From an uncultured Chloroflexia bacterium (lineage in GTDB: Bacteria; Chloroflexota; Limnocylindria; Limnocylindrales; CSP1-4), in contig CAWGBA010000004.1 of NCBI GenBank assembly GCA_963820735.1, forward strand, positions 131,579 through 195,578: DNA of 64,000 nt, written 5' to 3'. Below are positions 27,126 through 60,047 of this stretch, in pieces; within the stretch, counting starts at the first letter, position 1, and each line of letters begins with the position of its first letter. The notes beneath the pieces are model-generated. The model was not told where the DNA came from. It was given only the letters and a program-made list of their open reading frames with translations, and did not search any database. The translations under genes were made by a program, and so were the position numbers.

Positions 27126-27155
27126 CCTGATCCTTTCCCTGGAGGCCGGTCGGCG

Positions 27156-37028: not shown

Positions 37029-37102
37029 GCTCGCGGGTGCGACGGGCGAGCCGGCGCAAGCCGGCCGATTCGATCCGTCGATGGGGGGAGTAGCGGACGC
37101 CG

Positions 37103-44426: not shown

Positions 44427-45955
44427 AAGCCTCCGACCAGGGCAGTTGCCGCGCGCAATGCCGCGTCGTAGACGCCGGTGATGACCGCCGGGGCGAGGCC
44501 GATCGCGATCGTCGCGAAGGCCGCAACCGCGAGCCCGGTTGTCGTCATACGCCCGATCGTGATCTGGCGGGCGTTGGCGGGCGCTTCGCGCATGTACATG
44601 AACACGACGATGCGCAGGTAGTAGAACGCGGCTGCGGCGGCGTTGAGCATCATGATCACGGCCAGCACCGTCAGCCAGCCGCCGCCTTCGACCGCCGACA
44701 GCAGGATCAGCGCCTTGGCCATGAAGCCCGCAGTCGGCGGGATGCCGACCAGCGACAGCAGGAACAGCGTCAGCAGGATTCCGAGCAGCGGCGCTCGTCT
44801 TCCGAGCCCGGCGAACGACGAGATCTGGCTCGTCACCCCCGGCCTACGCTGCAATGCCGCAACGCAGGCGAAGGCACCCAGATTCATGAAGGCGTAGGCG
44901 ACGGCGTAGAAGAGCACCGCCTGGAGCCCGGCCTCCTGGACCCGTGGATCGCTCGCGCCCGCGAACACGGTAAGACCGACCAGGATGTATCCGGTGTGCG
45001 CAATCGAGCTGTAGGCCAGCATCCGCTTGATGTTGTCCTGGCCAAGGGCCGACAGGTTGCCAACCGTCATCGTGATCGCCGCGAGCACGCCGATGATCAG
45101 GTACCAGTCACCGCGGAGTGGCCCGAACGCCTCGACGAAGAGCCGCAGTGCGAGCGCGAACGCGCCGACCTTGGGGCCGACCGAGAGGTAGCCAGTCACC
45201 GGCGTTGGGGAGCCCTGGTACGCGTCGGGAGTCCAGTAGTGGAACGGGACGGCCGCGAGCTTGAACGCGACGCCGGTCGTCAGCAGCGCCATGCCGAAGA
45301 CGATCCCAGCCGGCAGCGTGTGGCCGACCTGCTCGCCCGCGGCCAGCTGCTGCAGGTCCTGAGCGATCGCGTGGATGTTGGTCGTGCCGGTGAAGCCGAA
45401 CGTGAACGCCAGGCCGAAGAGGAAGATTGCCGATGAGAACGAGCCCAGCAGGAAGTACTTGATGGCGCCTTCCGTCGACAGGCCGTCGCCCTTGGCGTAG
45501 CCGGCAAGCATGTAGCCCGGCAGCACCATCAGCTCCAGGCCCAGGAAGAGCACGAGCAAGTCGCGTCCGCCGCCGATGAGCATCGCGCCGCTGATCGCGA
45601 ACAGGAGTGTCGCGCTGAACTCGGCCATCGGCAGGCCGCGCGGCCGGAGGTAGTCCGGCGCGAACAGCATGGTCAGCACCGCGATCGAGAGGAACACGAG
45701 GTCGAGGAACTCGGTCAGGCTGTCGCGGACGTAGACGCCGCTGAAGACCTCCTGGCCCTGGGCGGGCAGGGCGCCGATCGAGCCGAGCGGTCCCGCGGCA
45801 ACGACCAGTCCGATGATCGCCAGCGTCCCGACGATCCCGACCGCCGAGATGAGGTTGTCGCGTTTCGGCCAGATGATGTCGACGATCACGATCAGGATGG
45901 CCAGCGCCGGCACGCACAGCCACGGTCCGATGGCGAGCCACTCGTTCGTCGTCAC
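44423..45955 (-). CDS. nuoN: NADH-quinone oxidoreductase subunit N
   Basis: 510-aa antiporter-like subunit (FHYWTPDAYQGSPTPVT, LAYSSIAHTGY). Last gene of the nuo operon. Confidence 0.9.
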   Translation of the reverse strand: MTTNEWLAIGPWLCVPALAILIVIVDIIWPKRDNLISAVGIVGTLAIIGLVVAAGPLGSIGALPAQGQEVFSGVYVRDSLTEFLDLVFLSIAVLTMLFAPDYLRPRGLPMAEFSATLLFAISGAMLIGGGRDLLVLFLGLELMVLPGYMLAGYAKGDGLSTEGAIKYFLLGSFSSAIFLFGLAFTFGFTGTTNIHAIAQDLQQLAAGEQVGHTLPAGIVFGMALLTTGVAFKLAAVPFHYWTPDAYQGSPTPVTGYLSVGPKVGAFALALRLFVEAFGPLRGDWYLIIGVLAAITMTVGNLSALGQDNIKRMLAYSSIAHTGYILVGLTVFAGASDPRVQEAGLQAVLFYAVAYAFMNLGAFACVAALQRRPGVTSQISSFAGLGRRAPLLGILLTLFLLSLVGIPPTAGFMAKALILLSAVEGGGWLTVLAVIMMLNAAAAAFYYLRIVVFMYMREAPANARQITIGRMTTTGLAVAAFATIAIGLAPAVITGVYDAALRAATALVGGF

Positions 45956-45956
45956 G

Positions 45957-47492
45957 TCAGCGTCCCACCGCGATGGCGCCGGCCTGGGCGATCTGGTGCA
46001 GCACCTGGTCGACCGGCTGGTTCACGAGGTTGAGGATGAGGCCCGGGAAGAGGCCGAAGAGCAGCGTCAGCGCAATGAGCGGGGTGAGGGTCATCAACTC
46101 GACCCGGTTGATGTCCGTGAGGTGGTGGCCGAGCCCCTTGAGGAAGTCGCTCACCTCGCCGAATGCGACGCGCTGGTACATCCACATCAGGTACGCGGCG
46201 CCGATGATCACGACCACGGTTGCAACGGCGGCCGCCGGCGGCCAGTAGACGAACGTGCCCAGGAAGACGAGGAACTCGCCAACGAACCCTGACAGGCCGG
46301 GGAGCCCCAGCGACGCCAGCATGAAGAAGCCGAAGATCGCCACGTAGACCGGTGTGCGCCCGGCGAGTCCGCCCATCTTGGCGATGGTCCGGTCATGGGC
46401 GCGCTCGTAGATCACGCCGACGCAGAGGAACAGCGCGCCCGTGATGACACCGTGGTTGATCATCTGGAGCACGGCGCCCTGGAGGCCCTGCTGCTGGAAG
46501 ACGAAGATGCCCAGCGTCACGAAGCCCATGTGGCTGACCGAGCTGTAGGCGACCAGCTTCTTCAGATCGGGCTGGACCATGGCCACGATCGCCCCGTAGA
46601 TGATCGCGATCAGCGAGAGCACGATGATCAGGCCGGCCAGGTCGACCGCCGCCTGCGGATAGAGCGGCAGCAGGAAGCGGATCATCCCGTAGCCGCCCAG
46701 CTTGAGAAGCACGCCGGCCAGGATCACGGAGCCTGCTGTCGGCGCTTCCACGTGCGCGTCGGGAAGCCAGGTGTGGAACGGCCACATGGGCACCTTGATC
46801 GCGAAGGCCAGGAAGAACGCCAGGAAGGCCCAGAACTGCAGCGTGGGGTCGAATCCGTGGCCACGCAGCGTCAGGTAGTCGAATGCGCCGTTCCATGAGC
46901 CGGTCGACGACTGGTAGGCGAACGCGGTGGCCAGGATCGCCACCAGCATCAGCAGCGAGCCGACCAGCGTGTAGAGGACGAACTTGATCGTCGCGTAGAT
47001 GCGGTTCGGGCCGCCCCAGATGCCGATGATCAGGTACATCGGCACGAGCACGACTTCCCAGAAGATGTAGAAGAAGAAGAGGTCGAGCGACAGGAAAACC
47101 CCGAGCATGCCGACCTCGAGGATGAGGAAGGAGATCATGTACTCCTTCACTCGCTCCTTGATCGGCCCGAAGCTGGCCAGGATGCTGATCCATGTCAAGG
47201 TGGTCGTGAGCACGACCAGGAGCAGCGAGATCCCGTCGACGCCGACGTGATAGTTCACGCCGAAGGCCGGGATCCAGGGCACGACCTCCTGCATCTGGAA
47301 CTCGCTGCCGGTCGCGGGGTGGAACGCCGCAACCATCAGCAGGGAGAGCCCCCAGACGATCAGGGAGATCAGCAGCGCCGCCCAGCGGATCAGCCTGAAG
47401 TTGTCCTTTGGGAGGAACGCCAGGATCACCGCGCCGATCAGCGGGCCGAAGATGATCGCGGAGAGGATCGGGAAGCCCCCGAGGTCGATCAT
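45957..47492 (-). CDS. nuoM: NADH-quinone oxidoreductase subunit M
   Basis: FHTWLPDAHVEAPTAGSVILAGVLLK, LVAYSSVSHMGF. Start taken at MIDLGGFPIL (47492). Confidence 0.9.
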   Translation of the reverse strand: MIDLGGFPILSAIIFGPLIGAVILAFLPKDNFRLIRWAALLISLIVWGLSLLMVAAFHPATGSEFQMQEVVPWIPAFGVNYHVGVDGISLLLVVLTTTLTWISILASFGPIKERVKEYMISFLILEVGMLGVFLSLDLFFFYIFWEVVLVPMYLIIGIWGGPNRIYATIKFVLYTLVGSLLMLVAILATAFAYQSSTGSWNGAFDYLTLRGHGFDPTLQFWAFLAFFLAFAIKVPMWPFHTWLPDAHVEAPTAGSVILAGVLLKLGGYGMIRFLLPLYPQAAVDLAGLIIVLSLIAIIYGAIVAMVQPDLKKLVAYSSVSHMGFVTLGIFVFQQQGLQGAVLQMINHGVITGALFLCVGVIYERAHDRTIAKMGGLAGRTPVYVAIFGFFMLASLGLPGLSGFVGEFLVFLGTFVYWPPAAAVATVVVIIGAAYLMWMYQRVAFGEVSDFLKGLGHHLTDINRVELMTLTPLIALTLLFGLFPGLILNLVNQPVDQVLHQIAQAGAIAVGR

Positions 47493-47586: not shown

Positions 47587-49611
47587 TCATCTTGAGACGA
47601 CCAGCAGGAAGCCGACCGACAGGACAATCAGGCCGGCGGCGATACCCAGCGCGTAGTTCTGCACGCGCCCGGTCTGGATGTGGCGCACCTCGGACCCGGC
47701 CGATTGGACCACGTGTGCGATGCCGTTGACCGTGCCATCGATGACCGCCCGGTCGAACCACCACAGGGAGGCGGCAACCAGGCTGCCGAAGCGCACGAAG
47801 AGCAGGTCGTTGAGGTCGTCGAAGTACCACTTATGGAACGAGCCGGTGTAGAGCGGCTTCGCGCGCTCCGTCCAGGCACGCACCAGCGCCTCGCGCGGCT
47901 TCAGGTTGAAGAAGCCGAACAGATACCAGCCGCCCACCATTCCCAGCACGGCGACTGCGACGCTGATCAGGATCAGCACGCCGTCGATGCCGAAGAGCGT
48001 GAAGGGTTGCTCGACGCGACCGAGCTCCTCGGTCGCCTGCTGGAAGACCGGTGTGAGCCATTGCGTGATCCGGCTGTCGCCGTAGGGCAGGCCCAGCAGC
48101 AGCCCGATGAAGATCGACGGGATCGCCAGCAGGATCAACGGTACCGTCATGGTCCGCGGTGACTCGTGGATCTTTGGCTCCACTTCCGGATCGACGTGGC
48201 TCGGGCCGTAGAACGTCTTGCCCATCAGCCTGAACATGTAGAACGCGGTCATCAAGGCCACGATCACGCCGATCACCCAGACGACGTAGAAGCCGTTCAA
48301 GAACGATTCGCTCAGGATCTCGTCCTTGCTGAAGAAACCGGCGAGCGGCGGAATCCCGGCAATCGCCAGCGCGCCGATCAACATCGTCCAGTGCGTGATG
48401 GGGATCTTCTTCGCGAGCGCCCCCATCTTGTTCATGTCCTGCTCGTCGTGCACGGCGTGGATCACCGAGCCGGAGTCGAGGAAGAGCAGGCCCTTGAAGA
48501 AGCCGTGCGCAACCAGGTGGAAGATCGCGGCGATGTACGCGCCGACGCCGAGCGCCGCGAACATGTAGCCCAGCTGTGACAGCGTCGAATAGGCCAGCAC
48601 GCGCTTGATGTCGGTCTGCGTGAAGGCGATCGACGCCGCCAGGATGGCCGTGAAGATGCCGATCGCCGCTACCACCACCATGGCGCCCGGAACGAGCGCG
48701 AAGATGCCGCTGGCGCGGGCGATGAAGTAGACGCCGGCGTTGACCATGGTCGCGGCGTGGATCAGTGCGCTCACCGGCGTCGGGCCTTCCATCGCGTCCG
48801 GCAGCCAGACATGGAGCGGGAACTGCGCCGACTTGCCCACCGCTCCGCAGAAGAGCAGGAGCGCGATGCCGGTCAACTGCCAGGTTGCAATGGAACCGTT
48901 GGCGTAAAGCTGCGGCAGCGTGGCGAAGACGGTCGGAAAGTTGAGCGTCCCCACGACGGTCCAGACCGCGAAGATGCCCAGCGAGAAGCCCATGTCGCCG
49001 ACGCGGTTGACGAGAAAGGCCTTCTTGGCAGCAAGGGCAGCGGAGCGTCGGCGGTACCAGAACCCGATCAGCAGGTAGCTCGACAGTCCGACCAGTTCCC
49101 AGGCCACGAAGAGCACCAGGAAGTTGTCTGCCAGGACCAGCAGCAGCATGCTGAACATGAAGAAGTTCAGGTACGTGAAGAAGCGCCACCGGCCCGGGTC
49201 GTGCGCCATGTACCCGATCGAGTAGACGTGCACGAGCATGCCGATCGTCGTGACCACGATGAGCATCACCGCGGTCAGCGCGTCGACCGCGAAGTTGGCG
49301 TCGACCACGAAGTTGCCTGCCGGGATCCACTGGTACAAGGTGAAGTGGATGCCCGCGTCCGGGATCGTTTTCGCGAAGAGCGTCTGGTAGACGATCCACA
49401 TCGCGACGAGCCACGTGATCACGATCGCCGAGACCGAGAAGATCCACGCGTAGCGCCCGAGGCGCCGGCCGAACACGGCGCTCAGGCCCGCCCCGACCAG
49501 CGGTAGAGCCATCAGGAGCAGCACCATGACCTGGTCCTGCTGCGTTCCGGGATCGAGAGTCGGCTGCACCGCGGTGCTCGCCGCGGCCAGGAGGTGCGTC
49601 GCGAAGGGCAC
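47587..49611 (-). CDS. nuoL: NADH-quinone oxidoreductase subunit L
   Basis: 674 aa. WELVGLSSYLLIGFW, LHVWLPDAMEGPTPVSALIHAATMV, and a long C-terminal amphipathic/TM extension. Confidence 0.9.
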   Translation of the reverse strand: MPFATHLLAAASTAVQPTLDPGTQQDQVMVLLLMALPLVGAGLSAVFGRRLGRYAWIFSVSAIVITWLVAMWIVYQTLFAKTIPDAGIHFTLYQWIPAGNFVVDANFAVDALTAVMLIVVTTIGMLVHVYSIGYMAHDPGRWRFFTYLNFFMFSMLLLVLADNFLVLFVAWELVGLSSYLLIGFWYRRRSAALAAKKAFLVNRVGDMGFSLGIFAVWTVVGTLNFPTVFATLPQLYANGSIATWQLTGIALLLFCGAVGKSAQFPLHVWLPDAMEGPTPVSALIHAATMVNAGVYFIARASGIFALVPGAMVVVAAIGIFTAILAASIAFTQTDIKRVLAYSTLSQLGYMFAALGVGAYIAAIFHLVAHGFFKGLLFLDSGSVIHAVHDEQDMNKMGALAKKIPITHWTMLIGALAIAGIPPLAGFFSKDEILSESFLNGFYVVWVIGVIVALMTAFYMFRLMGKTFYGPSHVDPEVEPKIHESPRTMTVPLILLAIPSIFIGLLLGLPYGDSRITQWLTPVFQQATEELGRVEQPFTLFGIDGVLILISVAVAVLGMVGGWYLFGFFNLKPREALVRAWTERAKPLYTGSFHKWYFDDLNDLLFVRFGSLVAASLWWFDRAVIDGTVNGIAHVVQSAGSEVRHIQTGRVQNYALGIAAGLIVLSVGFLLVVSR

Positions 49612-49614: not shown

Positions 49615-49926
49615 CTACTCCCGCATGCTCGAGTACTCGTCGACCAGCGGCGTGCGGCGGTTGCGGTAGATGGCGATGACGATCGCGAGCCCGACCGTCG
49701 CCTCGCCGGCGGCCACGGCCATCACGAACAGGGCGATCACTGCGCCGTTGGCGGCGAGCTCCGGCACGAAGGCGCCGAATGCCACGATCGACAGGTTGAC
49801 GGCGTTGAGCATCAGCTCGATCGACATGAGCATGGCGATGGCGTTGCGGCGTGCCAGGAAGCCGAACGTACCGATCGCGAAGAGGAGGCCCGAGAGGATC
49901 AGGTAGGCGTTGAGGTCGTGAGCCAT
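49615..49926 (-). CDS. nuoK: NADH-quinone oxidoreductase subunit K
   Basis: 103 aa, MAHDLNAYLILSGLLFAIGTFGFLARRNAI..MSIELMLNAVNL..AAGEATVGLAI. This is the terminal part of the composite ORF 49615..51384. ATGA overlap with nuoJ. Confidence 0.9.
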   Translation of the reverse strand: MAHDLNAYLILSGLLFAIGTFGFLARRNAIAMLMSIELMLNAVNLSIVAFGAFVPELAANGAVIALFVMAVAAGEATVGLAIVIAIYRNRRTPLVDEYSSMRE

Positions 49927-50582
49927 CAGAGTCCCTCCCCTTGGGGTCCGTGCGCGGTCGAGGTACTCACCGCCGCGCCGGTTGCACCGAGCCTGCGCGA
50001 GACGGGCAGGGGAGGGTCGGCGGGCGGGTTGGTCTGGTCGAGGCCTTCTTCGAGCGGGCCGTCTTCGCGCTTGGCCAGGAAGACACCGCCGATGACGGCG
50101 GCGAGCAGCAGCACGCTGATCACCTCGAACGGCAGCACGTACGTGCCGAAAAGGAGATGCGCGATGGTCGGCGAGGCCGCGACCGTCGGGCCCGGAGCCG
50201 TCGGCCACGGTGTGGCGACGACGACCACCGTGATGATGGCCACGAGGAAGATCGCCAGGATGGCCGCGGCCCACGCCTGGTGGTGGAAGACCAGGCGAGC
50301 AGGGCCTGCCTTCGATTGGGTGAGCATGATGGCGAAGAGGATCAGCACGCTGATCGCGCCGATGTAGACGAGCACCTGCGCGCCGGCCACCAGCGGCGCG
50401 CCGAGCAGCACGTAGATGCCGGCAAGCGCCGCGAACGAGAGGATCATCCAGAGCCCGGAACGGATGATGTTCCGTCCGAGCACGACCAGCAGCGCAGACC
50501 CGAGCATGACCGCGGCCAGGAGCAGGAAGATCAGGTCGTCCCAGGCGATCCCCAGGTACGGGATGGTCGAGGGAAGCGCCAC
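49926..50582 (-). CDS. nuoJ: NADH-quinone oxidoreductase subunit J
   Basis: 218 aa. AALAGIYVLLGAPLVAGAQVLVYIGAISVLILFAIML is typical NuoJ. Confidence 0.85.
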   Translation of the reverse strand: MALPSTIPYLGIAWDDLIFLLLAAVMLGSALLVVLGRNIIRSGLWMILSFAALAGIYVLLGAPLVAGAQVLVYIGAISVLILFAIMLTQSKAGPARLVFHHQAWAAAILAIFLVAIITVVVVATPWPTAPGPTVAASPTIAHLLFGTYVLPFEVISVLLLAAVIGGVFLAKREDGPLEEGLDQTNPPADPPLPVSRRLGATGAAVSTSTAHGPQGEGL

Positions 50583-50585: not shown

Positions 50586-53255
50586 CTAGCGGGGATGCGC
50601 GTGGGTGCCGCCGAACCCGTTGCCGGCGCCGTTCCCATGCCCGTGCCCATCCGCCGACCCGTGCCCGTTCCCGGACACTGCCGCGTTCGCCGCCAGCGGG
50701 CTCGACGCCACGGCCGCCGACACGGCACCCGGCGGCAGCATCGGAAGCATCCGCCCGGACGGAACGCCGCGACCGTTTGCCGAGGCTCGGGTGGCCCAGT
50801 CGCGCTCGCGGCGGACGTAGCTGATCTCGGTGTCTTGATCCATGGCGCTGATCGCCATCAGGTCGATCATCGGGTCGGCGCGGCTCTCGTGGCTGAGCTC
50901 GAAGTCGGGGCCGCAGCGAAGCGCGTCGTACGGGCACGCGTCCACGCAGATGCCGCAGAGGATGCAACGGCTCTCGTCGACGTCGTACTTCTCGAGCACG
51001 CGCGGCTTGGGCATCAGGGCGCCGGTCGGGCACGTCTCCGCGCAACGGCCGCACGAGACGCACGGCGTGGTGTTGAGGCTCATGTCGAGCGGCGTCGTGA
51101 CCAGGGTGTCGAAGCCAGTCCGCATGAAGTCGTAGCAGGCCGCGCCGACGACTTCCTTGCACACGTTTGCGCAGCGGCCGCAGTCGATGCAGCGCGACGG
51201 CTCGCGAAGGATGAACGCGTGCGAGTCGTCGCGGATGTAGTCGTGGTTGATGCCGGTGAAGCGGTTCTCGTCGACGCTGCGGTGGCTGAAGCCACTGCGT
51301 TCCGGCTCGAGCGTGCGCAGCGTGGTCCCGTATTCGATGCCCTGGCGGCGTAGGTCGCAGTAGCCGATCGCCTCGCAGGTGCACTGCAGGCAGCGGCCGG
51401 ACTCGGCCATCGCCTCGGCCTGCGTGTAGGGAATCTCGTACTCGATGTAGCTCGCGTTGCGCACCTCGGCCGGCATCGCCTTCAGGCGCAGGCGCGGCTC
51501 TTTGACCTCGCCGGTGAAGGGCACGATCGAGAGGAACTCGGGCTGCGGCTCGGCAAGCGTTTGGCGGGTGCGGATCGCTTGGAGATCCTGGCCCTTGAGG
51601 TACGCATCCACGGCGTAGGCGGCACGTCGCCCCTCGGCGACCGCCTGAACCACGGTCGCCGCGCCGACCCGCACGTCACCCGTTCCGAAGACGCCCGGGC
51701 GACCCGTCGCGAAGGTGACGGCATCAGCCACGAGTCGACCCCGGTTGGCGGTGACGCCATCGGCGCCGCGGTTGAGCCACGCCAACTCCGGCCCCTGGCC
51801 GATGGCCAGCAGCACGCGGTCGCAATCGATCACGAACTCTGTGCCCGCCATCGGCTCGGGCCGGCGGCGTCCGGAGGCATCCGGCGCGCCGAGCTTCATG
51901 CGCTGGAATTCGACGCCGGTGACCTTGTTGTTCGCGTCTGTCACGACCCTCGTCGGGGCCGCCTGGAAGATCGCGCGAGCGCCCTCCTCGATCGCCTCGT
52001 GCACCTCGTTGGCCGCGGGCATGTCCTTCATGTCGCGGCGGTAGACGAGCGTGACCTCCTTGGCACCCTGCCGGATGGAGGTCCTGGTGCAGTCCATGGA
52101 GGTGAAGCCGCCGCCGATCACGACAACGCGCTTGCCGGCGTGGCCCGGGTACGGCAGGCCAAGCGTCGCGATGCGCAGATACTCGAGGCCGTCGAGCACA
52201 CCCTCGGCGTCTTCGCCCGGGACGCCCAGCTTGTTGGTGTCGTAGCAGCCGATCGCGATGCAGACGGCGTCGAAGCCGCGGTTCTGCAGGTCGTCGAGCG
52301 TGTAGTCGCGGCCCAGTGCTGCGTTGCCCTGGAACTTGACGCCCAGGTCCCAGGCCGACTGGTACTCACCCTCGAGCACCTCGACCTTGGGCAGGCGGTA
52401 CTGCGGAATGCCGTAGCGCAGCATCCCGCCCGGCGCCGGGTCGCGTTCGAAGACCGTGACATCGTGGCCGGAGATCGCCAGGTAGTAGGCGGCCGACATA
52501 CCCGCCGGGCCGGAGCCGATCACGGCGACCTGCCGCCCGGACGTGGGCTGCAGCTCGAACGGGACCGGCGCCTTTGTGCCGTTGGCCTGCGCGCGGAGCA
52601 CTTGATCGCCGGCGTAGCGGTGGCTGTCGCGGATCGCGATCGCCTCCTCGACCTCGTCGCGGCGGCAGTGCTCCTCGCACGGTGCCGGGCAGACGCGGCC
52701 GAGCACGGAGGGGAACGGGATCGTGCGCTTGAAGATGCGCGCCGACTCGACGAAGTTGCCCTCCGTGTTGGCCTTCAGGAAGCCCGGGATGTCGATGTGC
52801 GACGGGCACTTGTTCTGGCACGGCGGCAGGCAGTAGGCGTTGTGGTCGCTGAAGATCAGCTCGAGGTTGGTCTTTCGGATCTGGCGCAGGCGCGGCGTTT
52901 GCGTGCGCACGACCATGTCGGGCTCGGCCTCGCGCGAGCAACTGATCGGCGGGGTTCCTTCGCCATCGACTTCGACCACGCACATGCGGCAGGCGCCGAA
53001 GCCGGGCAGCTTGGGCTCGTAGCAGAGCGTGGGGACCTCGACGCCGTTGTCGCGGCAGACCTCCAGGATCGTCTGGCCTTCTCGGCCCGTGACGGTTCGC
53101 CCGTCGATCTCGATCGTGAATGTCTGCGAGGCGATGCGACGCTGCGGGCTCTGCGTGACCAGGCGTGCCTCGGCGATCGCGTCCGGGGCAGCCGGATTCA
53201 CCGCCAGCGTGGCGTCCGAGGCGGCCGTTCGTTGCTGGGGCAAGGTGTCAGTCAT
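50586..53255 (-). CDS. Multidomain Fe-S flavoprotein: NuoG-type [2Fe-2S] N-terminus, GltD-like NAD(P)H oxidoreductase, NuoG/hydrogenase-type [4Fe-4S] domains, then the C-terminal half of NuoI
   Basis: aa ~45-125: TLCYEPKLPGFGACRMCVV..SC (2Fe-2S). aa ~140-560: CLPPCQNKCPSHIDIPGF..GRVCPAPCEEHC, VAVIGSGPAGMSAAYYL, GGGFTSMDC, GVFGTGDV (GltD/NfnB-like). aa ~620-750: CLQCTCEAIGYCDL, CIDCGRCANVC, CVSCGRCAETCPTGAL. aa ~755-800: KYDVDESRCILCGICVDACPYDALRCGPDFELSHESRADP. His/Gly/Asn-rich tail. Confidence 0.75.
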   Translation of the reverse strand: MTDTLPQQRTAASDATLAVNPAAPDAIAEARLVTQSPQRRIASQTFTIEIDGRTVTGREGQTILEVCRDNGVEVPTLCYEPKLPGFGACRMCVVEVDGEGTPPISCSREAEPDMVVRTQTPRLRQIRKTNLELIFSDHNAYCLPPCQNKCPSHIDIPGFLKANTEGNFVESARIFKRTIPFPSVLGRVCPAPCEEHCRRDEVEEAIAIRDSHRYAGDQVLRAQANGTKAPVPFELQPTSGRQVAVIGSGPAGMSAAYYLAISGHDVTVFERDPAPGGMLRYGIPQYRLPKVEVLEGEYQSAWDLGVKFQGNAALGRDYTLDDLQNRGFDAVCIAIGCYDTNKLGVPGEDAEGVLDGLEYLRIATLGLPYPGHAGKRVVVIGGGFTSMDCTRTSIRQGAKEVTLVYRRDMKDMPAANEVHEAIEEGARAIFQAAPTRVVTDANNKVTGVEFQRMKLGAPDASGRRRPEPMAGTEFVIDCDRVLLAIGQGPELAWLNRGADGVTANRGRLVADAVTFATGRPGVFGTGDVRVGAATVVQAVAEGRRAAYAVDAYLKGQDLQAIRTRQTLAEPQPEFLSIVPFTGEVKEPRLRLKAMPAEVRNASYIEYEIPYTQAEAMAESGRCLQCTCEAIGYCDLRRQGIEYGTTLRTLEPERSGFSHRSVDENRFTGINHDYIRDDSHAFILREPSRCIDCGRCANVCKEVVGAACYDFMRTGFDTLVTTPLDMSLNTTPCVSCGRCAETCPTGALMPKPRVLEKYDVDESRCILCGICVDACPYDALRCGPDFELSHESRADPMIDLMAISAMDQDTEISYVRRERDWATRASANGRGVPSGRMLPMLPPGAVSAAVASSPLAANAAVSGNGHGSADGHGHGNGAGNGFGGTHAHPR

Positions 53256-53258: not shown

Positions 53259-54614
53259 TCACGCGACGCTTGCGGCGGCCGAGACGGAGGCGGGATGGCA
53301 GACGCCGGCCGGGCAGACCCCGCGCTCGATGTGGTCCTCGAACTCCGAGGCGAAGTATCGCAGCCCGCTCAGCAGCGGGTTCACCGCGGTCGCCTCGAGT
53401 CCGCACAGCGCGCCGTCACGCACGTCCGCGGCGAGCGAGACGAGCAGATCGGGATCCTGCGGGCTGCAGCGTCCGGAGCAGAAGCCCTCGCCGAGCTGCG
53501 CCAGCCGTCGCGTGCCAATGCGGCAGGGAATCGTCTTGCCGCACGCCTCGTCGTTGAGGTAGCGGGTCATCAGCGTCGCCAGCTCGACGATGCAGGAGGA
53601 GTCGTCGATCGCGACGATCGTGCCTGAGCCGGGCACGGCACCGGCGGCACCCAGCGCGTCGTGGGTCAGCGGCGTGGAGAGCGCTGACGGCGGTAGGAAG
53701 CCGCCGGACGGACCACCGACGAGCACTGCCTTGAGGCGCGGACCGTTGGCGACTGGGGCGAGGCCGCTCGCGGTATCGACGATCTGTTGAAGTGTCGTTC
53801 CGGTGGGCACCTCGAGGATGCCGCTCTGCGAGATGCTTCCCGTGATCTGGACGAGGGTCGTGCCGGGTTCAGCCGCATCGCCGATCTCAGCGAACGCGGA
53901 CGGGCCATTGATCACGATCCAGGGCACGGCCGCAAGGGTCTCGACGTTGTTCACGACCGTCGGCTTGCCGCGCAACCCGCGCTCCGTCGGAAACGGAGGT
54001 CGCTGATCGGGTTGGGCGCGTCGTTCCTCGAGCGCGCGAAGGAGCACGGTCTCCTCACCGACCACGAACGAGCCGGCCAGCTGGCGAACCTCGATCCAGA
54101 GCTGCTCGCCGGTGCCGGCGATCGTCGCGCCGATATAGCCCGCGTCCTCGGCCGCCGCGATCGCCGACCGCAGTCGGTTCGCCGCCGCCGTCGCATCGGC
54201 GGAAACCACGATGATCGCCCGCTCCGCGCCGACCGCCCAGGCCGCCAGCGCCACGCCCTCGACGACGCCGTGCGGGTCGGACTCCATCAACGTTCGGTCG
54301 AGCTGCGCGCCGGGATCGGCCTCGAAGCCGTTTGCCACGACGTAGCGTTCGGTCGCGCGACCAGCCGCGGCGCGGCAGTCGAGCCACTTGCGCCCGGTGG
54401 GATAGGCGCCGCCACCGCGGCCGCGAAGCCCCGAGTCGGTGACGACCCGGATGACCTGCTCCGGCGTCATGGTCGAGACGGCCCTCCGCCAAGCCGTCCA
54501 GGCGCCGTGCTTCTCGGCGTTCGCGAAGTCGGCCCGCTCGATGGATGGGTCGTATGCCCCCGCCCGTGCGAGCAGGATCGACGGCCAACCGTGACGCATC
54601 TGCAGCAACTGCAT
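53259..54614 (-). CDS. nuoF: NuoF-like NADH-binding flavoprotein subunit (divergent)
   Basis: GLRGRGGGAYPTGRKW, NGFEADPGAQLDRTLMESDPH, GEETVLLRALE...PPFPTERGLRGKPTVVNNVET. The N3 region reads EACGKTIPCRIG rather than the usual SCGKCTPCREG. Confidence 0.8.
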   Translation of the reverse strand: MQLLQMRHGWPSILLARAGAYDPSIERADFANAEKHGAWTAWRRAVSTMTPEQVIRVVTDSGLRGRGGGAYPTGRKWLDCRAAAGRATERYVVANGFEADPGAQLDRTLMESDPHGVVEGVALAAWAVGAERAIIVVSADATAAANRLRSAIAAAEDAGYIGATIAGTGEQLWIEVRQLAGSFVVGEETVLLRALEERRAQPDQRPPFPTERGLRGKPTVVNNVETLAAVPWIVINGPSAFAEIGDAAEPGTTLVQITGSISQSGILEVPTGTTLQQIVDTASGLAPVANGPRLKAVLVGGPSGGFLPPSALSTPLTHDALGAAGAVPGSGTIVAIDDSSCIVELATLMTRYLNDEACGKTIPCRIGTRRLAQLGEGFCSGRCSPQDPDLLVSLAADVRDGALCGLEATAVNPLLSGLRYFASEFEDHIERGVCPAGVCHPASVSAAASVA

Positions 54615-54616: not shown

Positions 54617-55456
54617 CTAGGCGATGCCCCCCTGGGCGACGTGAGCGCGGAGTCCCGCCGAGATCACGATGGCATCATCGACGGTCGCCCGCGGCAGGGC
54701 CTGCCCATCCACCTCGACGCGTGGCGTTCCGGTGGCCGTGCCTCGGCAGTCGGTCTGCTCGAGGCGCACGGCGCCGTCCGGGCTCACGCCACCGACGTCA
54801 GTGCCCAGGTGCTCGCGGAACGCGGCAAGGATCCGGCCGCTGCCAAGGACCGCGCACGTGGCGCAGCGACAGACACGCACGACGTGGGTGCTCGGCGGCT
54901 CGAACTGCAGGTGCGGGTACGAGGTGGCGATGCCATACAGCTCCGAGTACCACGCGCCCGTCTGGTGCGCCACGTGCTGCAGCGCTGCAACCGGCAGGTG
55001 CCCGTAGGCTGCTTGGGCGCCTTCGAGGATCTGGACCGCTCGCTTCGGGTCGTAGTCCTCTCGAGCGAGCACGGCGTCTAGCGGGCCGAGATCGATCGGC
55101 TCGAAGGGATCGAAGCTGCGGTCCGGGACCGGCCGCCCCGAGCGGCGCAACGCGGACTCCTCGCGGCGCTCGTCGTATTGCTCGGCCGGACCCCAGTGGA
55201 TGTGGAAGCGGTTCTTCGTATCGACGCCACCCATGTCGATGCACTCGATGGGGCATGCCGCGGCGCACTGGAAGCAGGTCTCGCACTTGAGCGCGCCGTA
55301 CTCGTCGTAGAGCAGCAGCAGCCGGCCTCGATGCTTGGGCGCGATCGGCTGGACGACCTCGGGGTACTGCACCGTGATCTTGGGCTGGACGAGGCGCGTG
55401 AACGTGAGCATGAAGCCCTTCACGATGCCGAGCCCGGGAATGCGATCGGCGCGCAT
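54617..55456 (-). CDS. Fusion: N-terminal half of NuoI (one 4Fe-4S motif) joined to a NuoE-like thioredoxin-fold domain
   Basis: ATG 55456 shares one nucleotide with the nuoH stop (TGATG overlap). The N-terminus MRADRIPGLGIVKGFMLTFTRLVQPKITVQYPE..KHRGRLLLL..KCETCFQCAAACPIECI is NuoI-like. The C-terminus LPVAALQHVAHQTG..YGIATSYPHLQF..VVRVCRCATCAVLG..DGAVRLEQTDCRGTATGTPRV is NuoE-like. Confidence 0.7.
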   Translation of the reverse strand: MRADRIPGLGIVKGFMLTFTRLVQPKITVQYPEVVQPIAPKHRGRLLLLYDEYGALKCETCFQCAAACPIECIDMGGVDTKNRFHIHWGPAEQYDERREESALRRSGRPVPDRSFDPFEPIDLGPLDAVLAREDYDPKRAVQILEGAQAAYGHLPVAALQHVAHQTGAWYSELYGIATSYPHLQFEPPSTHVVRVCRCATCAVLGSGRILAAFREHLGTDVGGVSPDGAVRLEQTDCRGTATGTPRVEVDGQALPRATVDDAIVISAGLRAHVAQGGIA

Positions 55457-56853
55457 CAGATGGGCTTCCCAAGCTGCGCGAGGACGACGATGGCGCCCGC
55501 GGTGACGAAGATGTTCGCCAGCGATGCTGGGATCAGCCACTTCCAGGCGAAGCCCATGATCTGGTCGATCCGTACGCGCGGCAACGTCGCCCGCATGATC
55601 ACGAACAGGGCGACCAGCGTGAAGGTCTTGGCGAGGAACCAGAAGAGACCGATGACCTCCTGGTACTGGATCGCGAGATACAGCGTGAGCAGGCCGCCGA
55701 CGATCAGGTTGAACAGGATGAAGCCGACGATCAGCGACTTCAGGAACGACCAGCCGGTGCGGAAGGTCCACAGCAGGAGCGTCAATGCCAGCACGACGAT
55801 GGCCGGCACGATCAGCACGCCCCACAGCAGGCTCATCCCGAGCGACCCCGGGTCAAGCAGCAGCGTGAACGGCGTGGCGATGCCGAAGAAATTGAGGATT
55901 GGGTTGATGCTGAGCGGCGCATTCCAACCGCCCAGGAACACCACGGCGGTGAGCGCCGAGAGGATGAACACGTTCACGTACTCGGCGAAGAAGAAGAAGC
56001 CGAAGCGCATCCCGCTGTACTCGGTCGCGAAGCCGGCCACGATCTCGCTGTCCGCCTCGGTGAAGTCGAACGGGCTGCGGCTGCCTTCCGCGGTCGCCGC
56101 GATGAAGAAGATCAGGAAGGCGAGCGGCTGCTGGAACACGAACCAGTTGAGGAAGCTGCCCGACTGGCGCTCCACGATCGTGTTCAGGCTGAGCGTGCCG
56201 GTGATCATGATCACGCCCACCACGGACAGGGTCAGTGGGATCTCGTAGCTGATGATCGAGGCTGCCGCGCGCAGGCCGCCGAGCAGCGAGTACTTGTTGT
56301 AGCTCGACCAGCCGGCCATCATCAGGCCGACCACGCCGAGCCCGCCCATGGCGAAGAAGTAGAGCAGCCCCAGGTTCATGTCGAACCCGAAGACGCCGGG
56401 CGCGAAGGGCATCACCAGCAGCGTCATGACGCTCGCGAGGTAGACGACCGCCGGTGCGAGCGTGAAGACCGGGACGTCGACGCCGGTCGGGGTGAAGTCC
56501 TCCTTGGCGAGGACCTTCAAGCCTGCGACCACCGACGCGAGGGCGCCCCACGGTCCTGTCCGGTTCGGCCCGACGCGCAGGTTCACGAACGCGATCAGCT
56601 TCAGTTCCATGAAGATGATCAGGAACGCGACCGGGACCGTGATCAGCAGTACGACCGTCGCAGCGGCAACGAAGCGGACGATGCCGATGTTCGCGCCGAG
56701 CGTGTCGAGCACGCCCTGCAGGAGCCACGGCAGGACGCCTGCCACCCAGCCGACCAGCAGGAAGATGGTCAGCACGACCACCAGGAACAGCAACGGCAGG
56801 GCGATCTTGCCCGCCGTCGTCAGCTTCCCGAACGGCTTCGTGATGACGGTCAT
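55456..56853 (-). CDS. nuoH: NADH-quinone oxidoreductase subunit H
   Basis: 465 aa. RVGPNRTGPWG..LKVLAKED, WSSYNKYSLLGGLRAAASIISYEIPL, FDFTEADSEIVAGF.TEYSGMRF. Confidence 0.9.
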   Translation of the reverse strand: MTVITKPFGKLTTAGKIALPLLFLVVVLTIFLLVGWVAGVLPWLLQGVLDTLGANIGIVRFVAAATVVLLITVPVAFLIIFMELKLIAFVNLRVGPNRTGPWGALASVVAGLKVLAKEDFTPTGVDVPVFTLAPAVVYLASVMTLLVMPFAPGVFGFDMNLGLLYFFAMGGLGVVGLMMAGWSSYNKYSLLGGLRAAASIISYEIPLTLSVVGVIMITGTLSLNTIVERQSGSFLNWFVFQQPLAFLIFFIAATAEGSRSPFDFTEADSEIVAGFATEYSGMRFGFFFFAEYVNVFILSALTAVVFLGGWNAPLSINPILNFFGIATPFTLLLDPGSLGMSLLWGVLIVPAIVVLALTLLLWTFRTGWSFLKSLIVGFILFNLIVGGLLTLYLAIQYQEVIGLFWFLAKTFTLVALFVIMRATLPRVRIDQIMGFAWKWLIPASLANIFVTAGAIVVLAQLGKPI

Positions 56854-56892: not shown

Positions 56893-57018
56893 CGGTAGAG
56901 CTCAGGGTGCGCGGGCGAAGGCGGCGTCGAGCGCGCGGACCGAGCGCACGGCGTGCGGCGTGAGCGACGCGGCGTAGGCGGCAACGCCCGCCCGGGCCGC
57001 ATCAGCGACCGTGTTCAT
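56893..57018 (-). CDS. Possible 41-codon ORF translationally coupled (ATGA) to nuoD
   Basis: ATG 57018-57016 overlaps the nuoD TGA 57017-57015. The peptide is MNTVADAARAGVAAYAASLTPHAVRSVRALDAAFARAP. Third codon positions are almost all G/C, as in real genes here. No homology recognised. Confidence 0.25.
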
Positions 57019-58238
57019 TTGTCCACGCCGCCCATGATCGGGTCAAGGCTCGACATGATCGCCATGATGTCCGCGATCAGGTTGCCCGGGGTGACCGCGC
57101 CGACCGCCTGGAGATTGAAGAACGACGGGTCGTGGATGCGCAGCCGGAACGGCTGATCGGACCCATCGCTGATGGCATACGCGCCGTACTGGCCGCGCGG
57201 GCTCTCCAGGGCGACCCAGGCTCGGCCGGGCGGAACGCGCAGCAATCGCGGCAGCTTGGCCATCACCGGCCCGTCGGGCATCTGGTGCAGCACCTGGTCG
57301 ATGATCCGGATGCTCTGCTTGATCTCGTCGAAGTGGAGCAGGTAGCGCGCGTACGAGTCGCCCTCGGTGCGCGTGGGGATCTCGAAGTCGAGCTCGGGAT
57401 AGACGCTGTACGGGTGCGAGCGGCGAACGTCGTAGGGGATTCCCGTCGCCCGGATCACCGGACCGCTCAGACAGGTGCGCAGCGCCGTCTCACGGTCGAT
57501 CACGCCCAGGCCGCGCGTGCGGCCGACGAAGATCTCGCTCTCGTTGAGGAGCTTCATCTCGTCTTCGAGGTGCTTTCCGGCGTGGCTCATCCAGTCGCCG
57601 AGGCGGCTCATGAACTCGTGGTTCACGTCGCCGTTGACGCCGCCGATGCGCAGGTAGTTGAAGAGCAGCCGCTGCCCGGTGAGCGCCGCCAGCATCTCGA
57701 CGATCTCGTCGCGCTCGGCGAAGCCCCACAGAACGGGCGTCAGCCCGCCCAGGTCGAGCGCGAGCCATCCGATGAAGAGGGCGTGGCTGGAGATGCGGTT
57801 GAGCTCCCACGCGAGAACGCGGATGTACTCCGCGCGGCGCGGCACCTCCAGGCCGAGCAGCTTCTCTGCGGCGAGCACCGGGATCGCCTCCGAGAACATC
57901 GAGGCGATGTACTCGAGCGGATCGCAGTTGCTGATCGCGTGGTGCCAGTCGCCGTTCTCGACGATCTTCTCGACACCGCGGTGCAGGTAACCCAGGACCG
58001 GGTCGAGATCGACGATGCGCTCGCCGTCGATCTTGAGCACGACGCGCAGCACGCCATGCGTCGAGGGGTGCTGCGGGCCGAGGTTGATGAGCATCTCGCC
58101 ATCGCGCAGGTTGTAGAACTCGGCTTCGCGCTCGGTGCGCGGTGGGTACGGTGGGATCGCGTCGACGATCGTCGCGGGCGAGTCGACCAGGATTTCGGGA
58201 TCATCGAGCGAGCGGATGCGGGTGGCGGTGTCGCTCAT
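57015..58238 (-). CDS. nuoD: NADH-quinone oxidoreductase subunit D
   Basis: NLGPQHPSTHGVLRVVL..DGERIV, GYLHRGVEK, RIGG, ESPRGQ.G. Start at MSDTATR (58238) with ATGA overlap to nuoC. Confidence 0.9.
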   Translation of the reverse strand: MSDTATRIRSLDDPEILVDSPATIVDAIPPYPPRTEREAEFYNLRDGEMLINLGPQHPSTHGVLRVVLKIDGERIVDLDPVLGYLHRGVEKIVENGDWHHAISNCDPLEYIASMFSEAIPVLAAEKLLGLEVPRRAEYIRVLAWELNRISSHALFIGWLALDLGGLTPVLWGFAERDEIVEMLAALTGQRLLFNYLRIGGVNGDVNHEFMSRLGDWMSHAGKHLEDEMKLLNESEIFVGRTRGLGVIDRETALRTCLSGPVIRATGIPYDVRRSHPYSVYPELDFEIPTRTEGDSYARYLLHFDEIKQSIRIIDQVLHQMPDGPVMAKLPRLLRVPPGRAWVALESPRGQYGAYAISDGSDQPFRLRIHDPSFFNLQAVGAVTPGNLIADIMAIMSSLDPIMGGVDK

Positions 58239-58858
58239 GCCCCGATCCTCCCCGTCTCGTCGCCGGCGCCGACTGATCCACCCGGCTCGTCCGCACGACC
58301 AGCACTTCCGGCCGTGATCACCAGCAGCTGCCCGTCCGACCCGATCAAGGCACCGGTTCCGGGGCTTCGGCGCAGCACGGGCTGGCTCCGCGTCTCGGCC
58401 GGGTGCGCCGGCTGCTCCATCGCGCGGACGCCCCATCCCGGTGCGCGGGCTGCGTCGTCCGCCAGGAGGAAGTCCTTGCGCAGCGGGAACGACTGGAAGT
58501 CGGGATCGAGGTAGATCCGTCGCAGGTCGCGGTTCCCTTCGAAGATGATTCCGAACATGTCGTAGGCCTCGCGCTCGGCCCACTCGGCACCCGGCCAGAG
58601 GAACGTGACCGACGGAACTCGCGGGTCGTCGCGCGAGAGGCCGTCGGCAATCACACGGACCCAGTCGGGCGAGAGCGGCGACCAGAGGTGGTAGACGACC
58701 TGCATGGTCTCGCCGGTATCCACGCCGCACAGGTCCGCGAGCAGCTCGAAGCTCAGCTCCGGGTCGTCGTGGAGCGCCGTCAACACGTCGGTGACGTCAC
58801 CCGCGCGAATACGCAGCTCGGTGGTGTCCTGGCGCTGCCCCGCCGGCGCGAGCAGCAC
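58235..58858 (-). CDS. nuoC: NADH-quinone oxidoreductase subunit C
   Basis: WPGAEWAEREAYDMFGIIFEGN.DLRRI..D and FPLRKDF. The N-terminus probably lies further upstream: in-frame LKRRLDDRFGS precedes GTG 58858, and an AAGGAG is present upstream, but no canonical start codon is seen. Confidence 0.85.
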   Translation of the reverse strand: MLLAPAGQRQDTTELRIRAGDVTDVLTALHDDPELSFELLADLCGVDTGETMQVVYHLWSPLSPDWVRVIADGLSRDDPRVPSVTFLWPGAEWAEREAYDMFGIIFEGNRDLRRIYLDPDFQSFPLRKDFLLADDAARAPGWGVRAMEQPAHPAETRSQPVLRRSPGTGALIGSDGQLLVITAGSAGRADEPGGSVGAGDETGRIGA

Positions 58859-59687: not shown

Positions 59688-60047
59688 TCACTTCCAGGTG
59701 AGCACGCCCTTGCGCCAGGCGTACCCGAGTCCGGTCAAGAGGATGCCGACGAATATCAGCATGCTGATGAAGCCACCGACCAGCAGGTCCTGGAAGATCA
59801 TCGCCCAGAGATAGATGAACACGACCTCGATGTCGAACGCGACGAACAGCAGCGCATAGATGTAGAAGGAGAGGCCGAAGCGGCCCCACGTGTCGCCGAA
59901 CGTATCGATGCCCGACTCGTAGGGAAGACCCTTGTGCCGGTCGCTCTTGTGGCGATGACCCAGCAGCCAGGCCATCAGGATCGTCACGAAGACGAACGAG
60001 AAGCCGGCGAATGCGAAGCCGAGGACGTACCAGAGCGCGCTCGTCAC
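59688..60047 (-). CDS. nuoA: NADH-quinone oxidoreductase subunit A
   Basis: 119 aa, 3 [17 protein letters not shown]...[18 protein letters not shown]. Confidence 0.9.

Follow-up and report, generated by a model that had tools for sequence, protein, structure and literature searches.

A complex I operon of Limnocylindria with nuoI split around an NfnABC-like gene cassette

Organization of the operon

We analyzed a 64-kb stretch of DNA from an uncultured Chloroflexia bacterium (Limnocylindrales; assembly GCA_963820735.1, contig CAWGBA010000004.1, positions 131,579 to 195,578), referred to as the window, whose positions serve as coordinates for all features below. The element under study is an open reading frame (ORF) at 50586..53255 that lies on the minus strand, starts with ATG and encodes 889 amino acids. 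It follows the NuoF-like gene of an operon for respiratory complex I, and its product is termed G' here. All genes of this operon are on the minus strand, in the order nuoA-B-C-D-H-[I(N)::E]-F-[G'::I(C)]-J-K-L-M-N, with I(N) and I(C) denoting the N- and C-terminal halves of NuoI. The nuoI gene is split: a cassette of E-, F- and G'-like genes sits inside it, and its two halves are fused to the E-like and the G'-like proteins. The genes of the quinone (Q) and proton-pumping (P) modules (A, B, C, D, H, J, K, L, M and N) share this single tight operon, in which NuoI occurs as two halves only. Between nuoH and nuoJ, neighboring genes overlap by 1 nucleotide or are separated by 2–3 nucleotides, the start codon of I(N)::E overlapping the nuoH stop by 1 nucleotide. 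An initial annotation of G', made from its letters, had overlooked the minus-strand orientation, the non-canonical gene order with nuoH upstream of E, F and G', the presence of I(N) on a 279-amino-acid protein, and the identity of the motif CILCGICVDACPYDAL with the second half of NuoI. The features of the operon are as follows, with flavin mononucleotide abbreviated as FMN.

59688..60047, minus strand: nuoA (ORF), the first operon gene in related loci as well
58946..59683, minus strand: nuoB, subunit of cluster N2, 245 amino acids (Pfam Oxidored_q6, E 9e-28; CCAMEM, CxxGDC and GCPP motifs)
58235..58858, minus strand: nuoC (Pfam Complex1_30kDa, E 4e-38)
57015..58238, minus strand: nuoD, 407 amino acids from an internal start at 58238 (Pfam Complex1_49kDa, E 7e-84)
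55456..56853, minus strand: nuoH, 465 amino acids, containing an insertion not found in the Pfam model (NADHdh, E 9e-100; residues 66-452 on profile positions 5-298)
55193..55456, minus strand: NuoI N-half, residues 1-88 of the 279-amino-acid protein, with the first CxxCxxCxxxCP motif (C58, C61, C64, C68; PRK05888.1-1, E 2e-15; TIGR01971)
55079..55192, minus strand: conserved linker from the NuoI N-half to the NuoE-like domain, most columns conserved to ≥90% within the clade
54617..55078, minus strand: thioredoxin-like domain of the NuoE/BfuC type, its 2Fe-2S site degenerate (Pfam 2Fe-2S_thioredx, E 8e-26 at residues 127-263)
53259..54614, minus strand: NuoF/BfuB-like FMN subunit, truncated, 451 amino acids (Pfam Complex1_51K, SLBB, NADH_4Fe-4S)
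52896..53126, minus strand: G' residues 44-120, [2Fe-2S] domain equivalent to N1b/A1 (C78, C89, C92, C106; Pfam Fer2_4)
51576..52832, minus strand: G' residues 142-560, GltD/NfnL-like unit (Pfam Fer4_20, Pyr_redox_2; TIGR01318, 324 bits)
51336..51410, minus strand: G' residues 616-640, all-Cys motif CLQCTCEAIGYC equivalent to A4/N5, which aligns with CLECGCMDYFEC of Csac NfnA
51015..51212, minus strand: G' residues 682-747, HydA/NuoG-type 2x[4Fe-4S] region, A2/A3, including the N4 equivalent (weak Pfam Fer4_Nqo3; contiguous alignment to NfnA/StnC)
50766..51005, minus strand: G' residues 751-830, NuoI C-half with the second CxxCxxCxxxCP motif (C764, C767, C770, C774) and the C-terminal helix (TIGR01971)
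50589..50723, minus strand: G' residues 845-889, His/Gly/Asn-rich tail (from the translation)
49926..50582, minus strand: nuoJ (Pfam Oxidored_q3, E 6e-34)
49615..49926, minus strand: nuoK (ORF; position conserved in related loci)
47587..49611, minus strand: nuoL (ORF; antiporter-like paralogue pattern; position conserved)
45957..47492, minus strand: nuoM (ORF; antiporter-like paralogue pattern; position conserved)
44423..45955, minus strand: nuoN (ORF; antiporter-like paralogue pattern; position conserved)

The NuoB translation contains cysteine motifs including PGCPP, and that of NuoD contains QHPSTHGV and GYLHRG; we take these to be the N2 cluster ligands and the quinone-site motifs, respectively. 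NuoH has ~90 extra residues (465 amino acids compared with a 298-position NADHdh profile), the NuoH segments of the Thermoleophilia-type loci described below measuring ~344-382 amino acids, and NuoB has a Pro/Thr/Ala-rich N-terminal extension of ~100 residues, Oxidored_q6 beginning at residue 111 of 245.

A self-search of the window returned neither a second copy of any nuo gene nor an intact nuoI, only the expected cross-matches among nuoL, nuoM and nuoN. The cassette does not encode a canonical NuoE-NuoF-NuoG module, all three proteins scoring below the NCBIfam cut-offs (NuoG TIGR01973, 87.8 versus 470; NuoF TIGR01959, 349 versus 559; NuoE TIGR01958, 62 versus 142). The initial annotation had allowed for a canonical nuoG elsewhere that serves this membrane arm; none was found in the 64-kb window, the sole region searched.

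The two halves of NuoI

The 279-amino-acid protein encoded two genes upstream of G' (54617..55456) matches NuoI models over its first ~85 residues, where residues 14-80 fall on positions 1-66 of the 121 positions of TIGR01971. Residues 752-796 of G', which include the ferredoxin motif at residues 764-779, match positions 71-115 of the same NCBIfam model. A construct joining residues 1-86 of the 279-amino-acid protein to residues 751-830 of G' yields one unbroken HMMER domain to Paracoccus NuoI (8qby_I, residues 17-149 of 163, E 6e-23), with lower matches to NuoI/TYKY of plants, E. coli, mammals and Thermus. The break is located in the loop that separates the two CxxCxxCxxxCP motifs, and no single polypeptide carries both motifs with their flanking NuoI segments; they are spread over the 279- and the 889-amino-acid proteins. 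To our knowledge, NuoI (TYKY) is one polypeptide in all described forms. A single-sequence structure prediction of the joined halves was unusable (mean predicted local distance difference test score, pLDDT, 34.8). The complementarity of the two halves leads us to infer that they reassemble in trans into the subunit that would hold the N6a/N6b dicluster.

Distribution of the arrangement

Homologues of G' fall into at least 120 clusters at ≥80% identity, all of 845-916 amino acids, and those with named sources come from Chloroflexota or Candidatus Limnocylindria/Limnocylindrales metagenome-assembled genomes (MAGs); the loci nearest to the window G' belong to a Chloroflexota MAG (87%) and a Candidatus Limnocylindrales MAG (85%). 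A collection with one genome per species contains at least 571 genomes with a relative of G'. The best 80 are all Chloroflexota/Limnocylindria-type MAGs, and wherever the flanking sequence suffices, these 80 show an identical order of 13 genes and the I(N)::E fusion. The records of relatives give soil, freshwater and sediment metagenomes as MAG sources. An exhaustive search of representatives uncovered a second clade, exemplified by the 816-amino-acid protein P0135 (44% identical to G'), which carries the fusion to the NuoI C-half and whose contig repeats both the operon order and the I(N)::E fusion. Relatives of P0135 are named as Thermoleophilia or Actinobacteria MAGs in their source records, and ~65 metagenome loci of this clade show the same arrangement. 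The survey of nuo operons in relatives that the initial annotation had proposed therefore finds the arrangement in every sufficiently long locus among ~145 from two phyla.

These loci bear on the concern that the split is an artefact, either an assembly or frameshift error or the inactivation of nuoI by an inserted Nfn operon. Such a suspicion is understandable, as pipelines label the pieces merely 'NuoE' and 'FAD-dependent oxidoreductase', so that they look like unrelated genes at first sight. Identical in-frame fusions in ~145 independent loci, invariant NuoI cysteines in both halves (the four of I(N) being present in 67 of 68 Limnocylindria-type loci), a strongly conserved linker, and 2836 homologues of the I(N)::E protein at E≤1e-10 effectively refute it. 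The top 120 of these homologues have 264-281 amino acids, mostly 279, and the named ones are annotated as a NuoE-type subunit, with one as formate dehydrogenase subunit gamma.

Several variants were observed among the related loci. In a sub-branch comprising L081 and P0135, the YRR of the second dinucleotide fold is lost and the GltD loop LGxPDASGRRRP carries a deletion, both features being kept in the clade consensus (LYRR); judged from sequence, these changes may reflect altered or lost nucleotide specificity in a side lineage. The idea that the Thermoleophilia type is losing its NADPH site while Limnocylindria are losing the FMN core was rejected, as YRR loss is confined to that sub-branch. 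In two loci (L087, 8282-12697; L088, 6414-10826), a BfuB-like and a G'-like sequence share one frame with apparently no stop between them, suggesting an F::G' fusion in this sub-lineage. One Thermoleophilia-type contig (Ga0194043_1000033; loci L100 and L149) carries a Nuo-linked G' and, 10-20 kb away, a second, StnC-related relative in a stop-to-stop frame of ~1395 amino acids, for which no same-strand BfuB/C-like or nuo match was found within the locus; loci L148-L157 are all of this StnC-related kind.

Architecture of G'

All motifs quoted in the initial annotation (CLPPCQNKCPSHIDIPGF, GRVCPAPCEEHC, GSGPAGMSAAYYL, GGGFTSMDC, CLQCTCEAIGYCDL, CIDCGRCANVC and CVSCGRCAETCPTGAL), along with the His/Gly/Asn tail, are present in the 889-amino-acid translation. 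The 2Fe-2S, GltD-like and 4Fe-4S domains it had proposed are recovered by Pfam, strongly for Fer2_4 (residues 44-120, E 9e-21), Fer4_20 (142-221, E 3e-17) and Pyr_redox_2 (242-542, E 4e-29), weakly for Fer4_Nqo3 (682-747; 24.3 bits versus a cut-off of 27); several 4Fe-4S models match residues 725-780. In NCBIfam, residues 45-702 match PRK12814, a Fer2-GltD fusion model, with 540 bits, under its cut-off of 916. The GltD-like unit comprises two [4Fe-4S] sites (A6/A7), a fold for flavin adenine dinucleotide (FAD) with GSGPAG and an NAD(P)H fold, GGGFTSMD with VYRR. The reported absence of the molybdopterin-like domain of NuoG holds, with no Pfam or NCBIfam match to it in G'.

What had been read as a new chimera of NuoG and GltD is, by sequence, the known large-subunit architecture of NfnABC/StnABC (Bfu-type) transhydrogenases. 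The best PDB sequence match of G' is NfnA of Caldicellulosiruptor NfnABC (9bov_A, 1178 amino acids, E 3e-164), in a contiguous alignment of query residues 47-773 to target residues 5-698, and further matches are StnC of Sporomusa StnABC (8oh5_C, E 5e-149) and an archaeal NfnA (9n5u_A). Identity to NfnA/StnC amounts to ~36-39% across ~720 columns, the alignments ending at about residue 775 of the query and 700 of 1178 in the target. Up to this point G' has every element of an NfnA/StnC large subunit, namely the N-terminal [2Fe-2S] domain, the GltD-like FAD/NADPH unit with two [4Fe-4S] sites, A4, and A2/A3. According to published work, StnC joins GltD and NuoG domains and ends in an inactive FdhF-like C-terminus (PMC10482914), and both nearest solved relatives, NfnA and StnC, bind FAD and NADPH in the GltD-like domain (PMC10482914, PMC11829005). 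G' lacks an FdhF-like C-terminal domain with A5, ending at residue 889 with a NuoI-like segment at 751-830; on this alignment the NuoI C-half stands in place of the inactive FdhF-like tail (~470 amino acids) of NfnA/StnC. A5 and its domain are replaced ~20 residues past the A2/A3 domain, and A4 is intact.

In an AlphaFold2 model of G', confidence is confined to the 2Fe-2S and GltD parts, with pLDDT mostly 80-96 in the GltD unit. Foldseek searches with this model return NfnA and StnC at the top, followed by NfnL, GltD and dihydropyrimidine dehydrogenase; against NfnL and GltD, the GltD-like unit reaches a template modeling score (TM-score), normalized by target length, of 0.78-0.79.

The GltD unit, its FAD fold and its NADPH fold with VYRR are nearly invariant in 80 loci. 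Across both clades, all cluster-ligand cysteines of G' are invariant or nearly so: C78/C89/C92/C106, C622/C625/C627/C633 of A4, the eight of A2/A3 and the four of the NuoI C-half. The FAD-side arginine R287, which corresponds to StnC R239, is invariant, as is His212 in both Nuo-linked clades. His212 aligns with K170, a lysine that in Nfn and Stn ligates A7, the cluster directly following FAD (PMC11829005); the soluble StnC-like representatives examined have Lys at this position.

G' also has features outside the shared architecture. Its residues 1-43 (window 53126-53255, minus strand) form an extension ahead of the 2Fe-2S domain that is absent from NfnA and StnC and contains a segment, ALAERLLTTQSPQRP, strongly conserved within the clade, which may contact another subunit. 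At the other end, 68% of 120 Limnocylindria-type homologues have at least four His in their last 45 residues, in GNGH repeats that frequently terminate in GGHAH(P/A)R, compared with none of 118 Thermoleophilia-type homologues, which instead have a conserved G-x-G-W-Q-W-x-P-x-K-G-D-G; metal binding by the His/Gly/Asn-rich tail is a guess.

Two other identities for G' were rejected. It is not a genuine glutamate synthase subunit (TIGR01318, 324 versus a cut-off of 483; TIGR01317, 227 versus 448), the domain being embedded in a larger protein; no GltB-type domain was matched by Pfam among the scanned neighboring genes of the window. Close homologues are labeled 'FAD-dependent oxidoreductase' or, by the Joint Genome Institute (JGI), 'formate dehydrogenase major subunit', and the latter is ruled out as G' has no molybdopterin domain.

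Reduced E-like and F-like subunits

Among PDB entries, the F-like protein matches HydB, NfnB and StnB with 352-378 bits, compared with 274 bits for true NuoF. Relative to a 638-amino-acid Thermoleophilia-type homologue, it lacks the first ~130 and the last ~70 residues. It stops just past the BfuB-type CPAGVC motif and has no B3/B4 domain, and the loss of the N-terminal ~130 residues removes the B5 domain. The second cysteine of the N3/B1 motif is Thr in the window and Thr or Ser in 62 of 72 loci. In the E-like protein, the fourth cysteine of the 2Fe-2S site (position 241) is never Cys in 68 loci, and the other three are present in just 39-40 of these, mostly replaced by alignment gaps elsewhere. 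The strongly conserved parts of this protein are the I(N) cysteines, the linker and the helical N-domain of NuoE, the linker being conserved above the NuoE cluster region. The Bfu family is defined by a conserved BfuBC core of FMN and six iron-sulfur centers, B1-B5 and C1 (PMC9304861); the window clade lacks this core, with B3/B4 and B5 gone, a B1 cysteine altered and C1 incomplete.

The Thermoleophilia-type loci differ in both subunits. Their B-like protein has full length (605-645 amino acids), and in 44 sequences its ligands are invariant in the N-terminal 2Fe-2S-type domain, in N3/B1, in CPAGxC and in the C-terminal 2x[4Fe-4S] domain; their E-like domain retains all four cysteines. By sequence, the Thermoleophilia type thus has a complete BfuBC core. 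Because the sister clade has a full-length B-like subunit and four E-like cysteines, the comparison suggests a Bfu ancestor, of which the window version would be a reduced form.

The initial annotation had raised a bifurcation-like function. A complex I of the Nuo-Bfu kind proposed by Schut et al. 2022, in which NAD(P)H and reduced ferredoxin would jointly drive quinone reduction by confurcation or bifurcation, could be argued from the complete core of the Thermoleophilia-type sister clade and from the prediction of Nuo-Bfu complexes in other phyla (PMC9304861). For the window lineage we regard this as highly improbable. Its B-like subunit is without the C-terminal B3/B4 domain, the proposed ferredoxin site, and without the B5 domain; C1 is short of a ligand or is deleted, B1 is short of a cysteine, and in Stn removal of the cluster equivalent to C1 abolished ferredoxin reduction and bifurcation. 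With no ferredoxin-reducing domain, no N-terminal 2Fe-2S domain and no 2Fe-2S cluster of the NuoE type, bifurcation appears unlikely here, and the suggestion is poorly supported for this lineage; for the Thermoleophilia-type lineage, the sequences leave bifurcation open.

The same losses could be read as a complex I specific for NADPH, with the GltD-like FAD as the sole working entry and the F-like and E-like proteins as redox-dead scaffolds, relics comparable to the molybdopterin-like domain of NuoG. This would fit the median identities to the window within its clade, which are lowest for F (56.1%) and among the best for G' (79.5%, similar to NuoK and NuoB). It would also fit a NuoE-type 2Fe-2S site that is never complete and often deleted, an N3/B1 motif without its second cysteine in ~90% of loci, and an NADH-site motif altered from GDEGDPGAFMDR to NG(Y/F)EADPGAQ(T/L)DR. 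Against this, F strongly conserves GLRGRGGAGFP in the FMN loop, GEET and three N3 cysteines out of four, its ORF is intact in 72 of 72 loci, and a replaced ligand that is nearly always Thr or Ser resembles a retained oxygen ligand rather than decay. Weighing both sides, we consider redox-dead E and F subunits unlikely.

Proposed working of the complex

In complex I, the productive branch runs from N1b over N4 and N5 to N6a/N6b in NuoI and then to N2. We interpret the locus as encoding a respiratory complex I whose head descends from a Bfu-type NADPH/NADH/ferredoxin transhydrogenase (NfnABC/StnABC) instead of NuoEFG and is encoded by a cassette within nuoI. Most likely it would be an NAD(P)H:quinone oxidoreductase that pumps protons and does not bifurcate electrons, and we assign this reading a probability of about 0.6. 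The GltD-like domain is best read as a second site for pyridine nucleotides, connected to the membrane arm as the initial annotation suggested, given what its counterparts in NfnA and StnC bind. The sequences themselves establish the gene anatomy, the homologies, the complementary split, the conservation pattern and the loss of bifurcation hallmarks, and this anatomy is well supported. Occupancy of the cofactor sites, NADPH as the physiological donor, the direction of electron flow and proton pumping are all predictions that we infer from homology.

The cassette has the order C-like, B-like, A-like, with the NuoI N-half on the N-terminus of the NuoE/BfuC-like protein and the C-half on the C-terminus of the NfnA-like protein. 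In the proposed mechanism, each NuoI motif would provide three cysteines to one cluster and one cysteine to the other, as in 2x[4Fe-4S] ferredoxin folds, and the reassembled NuoI would both dock the head on the Q module and wire it electrically. Anchoring two head subunits to the Q module in this way may replace the docking normally given by the C-terminal domain of NuoG. In NfnABC, the path is FAD-A7-A6-A3-A2-A1-[B1-FMN-C1]-B3-B4, and A2-A4-A5 is a non-functional side-branch remnant (PMC11829005, PMC10482914). In the window enzyme, hydride from NADPH would reduce FAD in the GltD-like domain, and electrons would pass through A7, here His212-ligated, to A6, A3 and A2. They would leave A2 by the A4 branch, a dead end in soluble Nfn/Stn that corresponds to the N5 route of complex I, and continue over N6a, N6b and N2 (NuoB) to quinone. 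NADH probably still enters at the FMN of the truncated F-like subunit, passing through a cluster with three Cys and one Thr and through the 2Fe-2S cluster A1. Electrons from NADPH and NADH would converge at A2 and exit through A4, with an ordinary membrane arm pumping protons.

Several points weigh against this interpretation. The reassembly of NuoI is deduced from the complementarity of the two sequences, and the AlphaFold2 model has pLDDT <50 at G' residues 625-815, an unreliable region from which the geometry between A4 and N6a is not derivable. The FMN branch is ambiguous, as one N3/B1 cysteine is replaced and the NADH-site motif deviates from the Bfu/Nuo consensus; NADH entry could be impaired, or the F subunit could be mainly structural. 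Specificity for NADPH over NADH is predicted from homology and the conserved YRR, and the enzyme could run in reverse, making NADPH. Finally, the search for a canonical nuoEFG, nuoI or second complex I is confined to the 64-kb window.

Complex I is reversible, which counts in favor of a complex that works mainly backwards or as a coupled transhydrogenase. In that case, quinol and proton-motive force (or NADH) would reduce NADP+ for biosynthesis, like Nfn/Stn in anaerobes. The ancestry of the head lies in reversible transhydrogenases whose physiological role is the supply of NADPH (PMC10482914, PMC9304861), and in relatives both flavin sites are joined by the A7-A6-A3-A2-A1-B1 wire. An uncoupled wire between FAD and FMN would, however, short-circuit the NADPH pool into NAD+, and the loss of the gating cluster C1 speaks against transhydrogenation under control. 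The host MAGs moreover come from soil, freshwater and sediment, and if these are aerobic heterotrophs, cheaper routes to NADPH exist; the relatives of the window organism presumably are. We therefore regard operation mainly in reverse as improbable, and retain the NAD(P)H:quinone oxidoreductase as the preferred reading.

Comparison with known systems

NfnABC/StnABC of Sporomusa ovata, Caldicellulosiruptor and Thermococcus share with the window cassette the order of the trio (NuoE-like, NuoF-like, large subunit) and, within the large subunit, the order of [2Fe-2S] domain, GltD insertion, A4 motif and A2/A3 dicluster. They carry a ~470-amino-acid FdhF-like domain, responsible for tetramerization, required for Stn to assemble and containing A5, where the window enzyme has half a NuoI. 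Compared with these systems, the window B subunit lacks the N- and C-terminal cluster domains, and the C subunit, now fused to one half of NuoI, no longer has its 2Fe-2S ligands. At A7 they have Lys (K170), whereas the window protein and other Nuo-linked members have His212. NfnABC/StnABC occur in anaerobic acetogens, fermenters and archaea, in contrast to the window genes, which belong to a nuo operon found in MAGs recovered from soil, freshwater and sediment. With canonical complex I (NuoEFG/Nqo2-1-3, NuoI/Nqo9), the system shares the logic of the wire (flavin, N3, N1b, N4, N5, N6a, N6b, N2), ordinary Q and P modules, and a NuoI that the joined halves match end to end. The canonical gene order is E-F-G-H-I-J, as opposed to H-I(N)E-F-G'I(C)-J in the window, where a GltD unit is inserted and NuoI is placed on two polypeptides.

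Schut et al. 2022 predict Nuo-Bfu complexes in Geobacter, Deferribacteres, Planctomycetes and Nitrospirae and describe Nfn-Bfu separately (PMC9304861). There, too, the genes of a Bfu-type ABC module are surrounded by nuo genes, and the module is proposed to substitute for NuoEFG. Those complexes have 14 separate subunits with a proposed confurcation of NADH and ferredoxin, and the text available to us mentions neither a GltD/NADPH domain nor a split NuoI (PMC9304861); the window version, unlike them, is without the bifurcating core. Actinobacteria are not mentioned in that article, and Chloroflexi appear in it four times, each time in connection with different types of Bfu (PMC9304861). In Mbx-like operons (Degli Esposti 2015, PMC4758237), a gltD-related flavoprotein occupies the NuoI position of a membrane module of the complex I family. 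These belong to the Mrp/Mbh-type branch and work in the ferredoxin-to-NADP+ direction, and their flavoprotein replaces NuoI and has no NuoE/NuoF-like partners (PMC4758237). The 11-subunit relatives, cyanobacterial NDH-1 (ferredoxin) and archaeal Fpo (FpoF/F420), share the principle of a Q and P core with alternative input modules (PMC3144371). In contrast to these, the window input module appears Nfn-derived and is covalently joined through NuoI, not docked as a separate subunit.

Other genes in the window

Among ten neighboring genes scanned, Pfam finds cell-envelope functions only. A minus-strand cluster at 33012-38452 encodes a myo-inositol-1-phosphate synthase, two proteins with lipid-A-type acyltransferase domains (one of them PHP-fused) and a GT4 glycosyltransferase, a combination reminiscent of the synthesis of phosphatidylinositol-mannoside-type glycolipids. 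A 1622-amino-acid protein within 23998-32024 has a PMT (protein O-mannosyltransferase) domain just at residues ~1067-1215, and the adjoining gene, which runs the other way, encodes a 585-amino-acid TMEM260-like O-mannosyltransferase. A sortase-domain gene (42093-42656, minus strand) is followed by a highly repetitive stretch up to 43521; the repeats at 42994-43521 encode a Ser/Glu/Pro-rich peptide on the minus strand and another repeat peptide on the plus strand. Judged by its composition, this stretch is probably a low-complexity surface protein, with an ambiguous coding frame.

Implications

The literature yielded no report of a complex I with an Nfn-type head or of a NuoI divided in two, subscription-only papers lying outside that coverage. 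The domain architecture of G' proper is known; new are the NuoI C-half in place of the FdhF-like tail and the NuoI N-half on a NuoE-like protein. An input module of different ancestry spliced into NuoI is a natural example of a rewired modular redox machine, in which a branch of clusters that leads nowhere in soluble transhydrogenases would carry electrons out to the quinone site. Given the misleading pipeline labels, metabolic reconstructions of these lineages likely report nuoG and nuoI as missing.

Textbooks describe complex I as the NADH-specific entry point of respiration. A more far-reaching and distinctly tentative view, which we think has the odds against it, is that Limnocylindria and Thermoleophilia-type Actinomycetota, two abundant uncultured groups, respire with an undescribed class of complex I that carries a captured Nfn-type head on a split NuoI. 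The enzyme of the window lineage would then be a true NADPH-driven pump with a vestigial or secondary FMN site, and that of the sister lineage would couple NADPH, NADH, ferredoxin and quinone by placing a bifurcating core on a pump. The sister clade would be a candidate for flavin-based electron bifurcation on a proton pump, which has been proposed but never shown. If the function predicted for the window enzyme is true, energy would be conserved directly from NADPH without a transhydrogenase, and models of redox balance and growth yield for these organisms would change.

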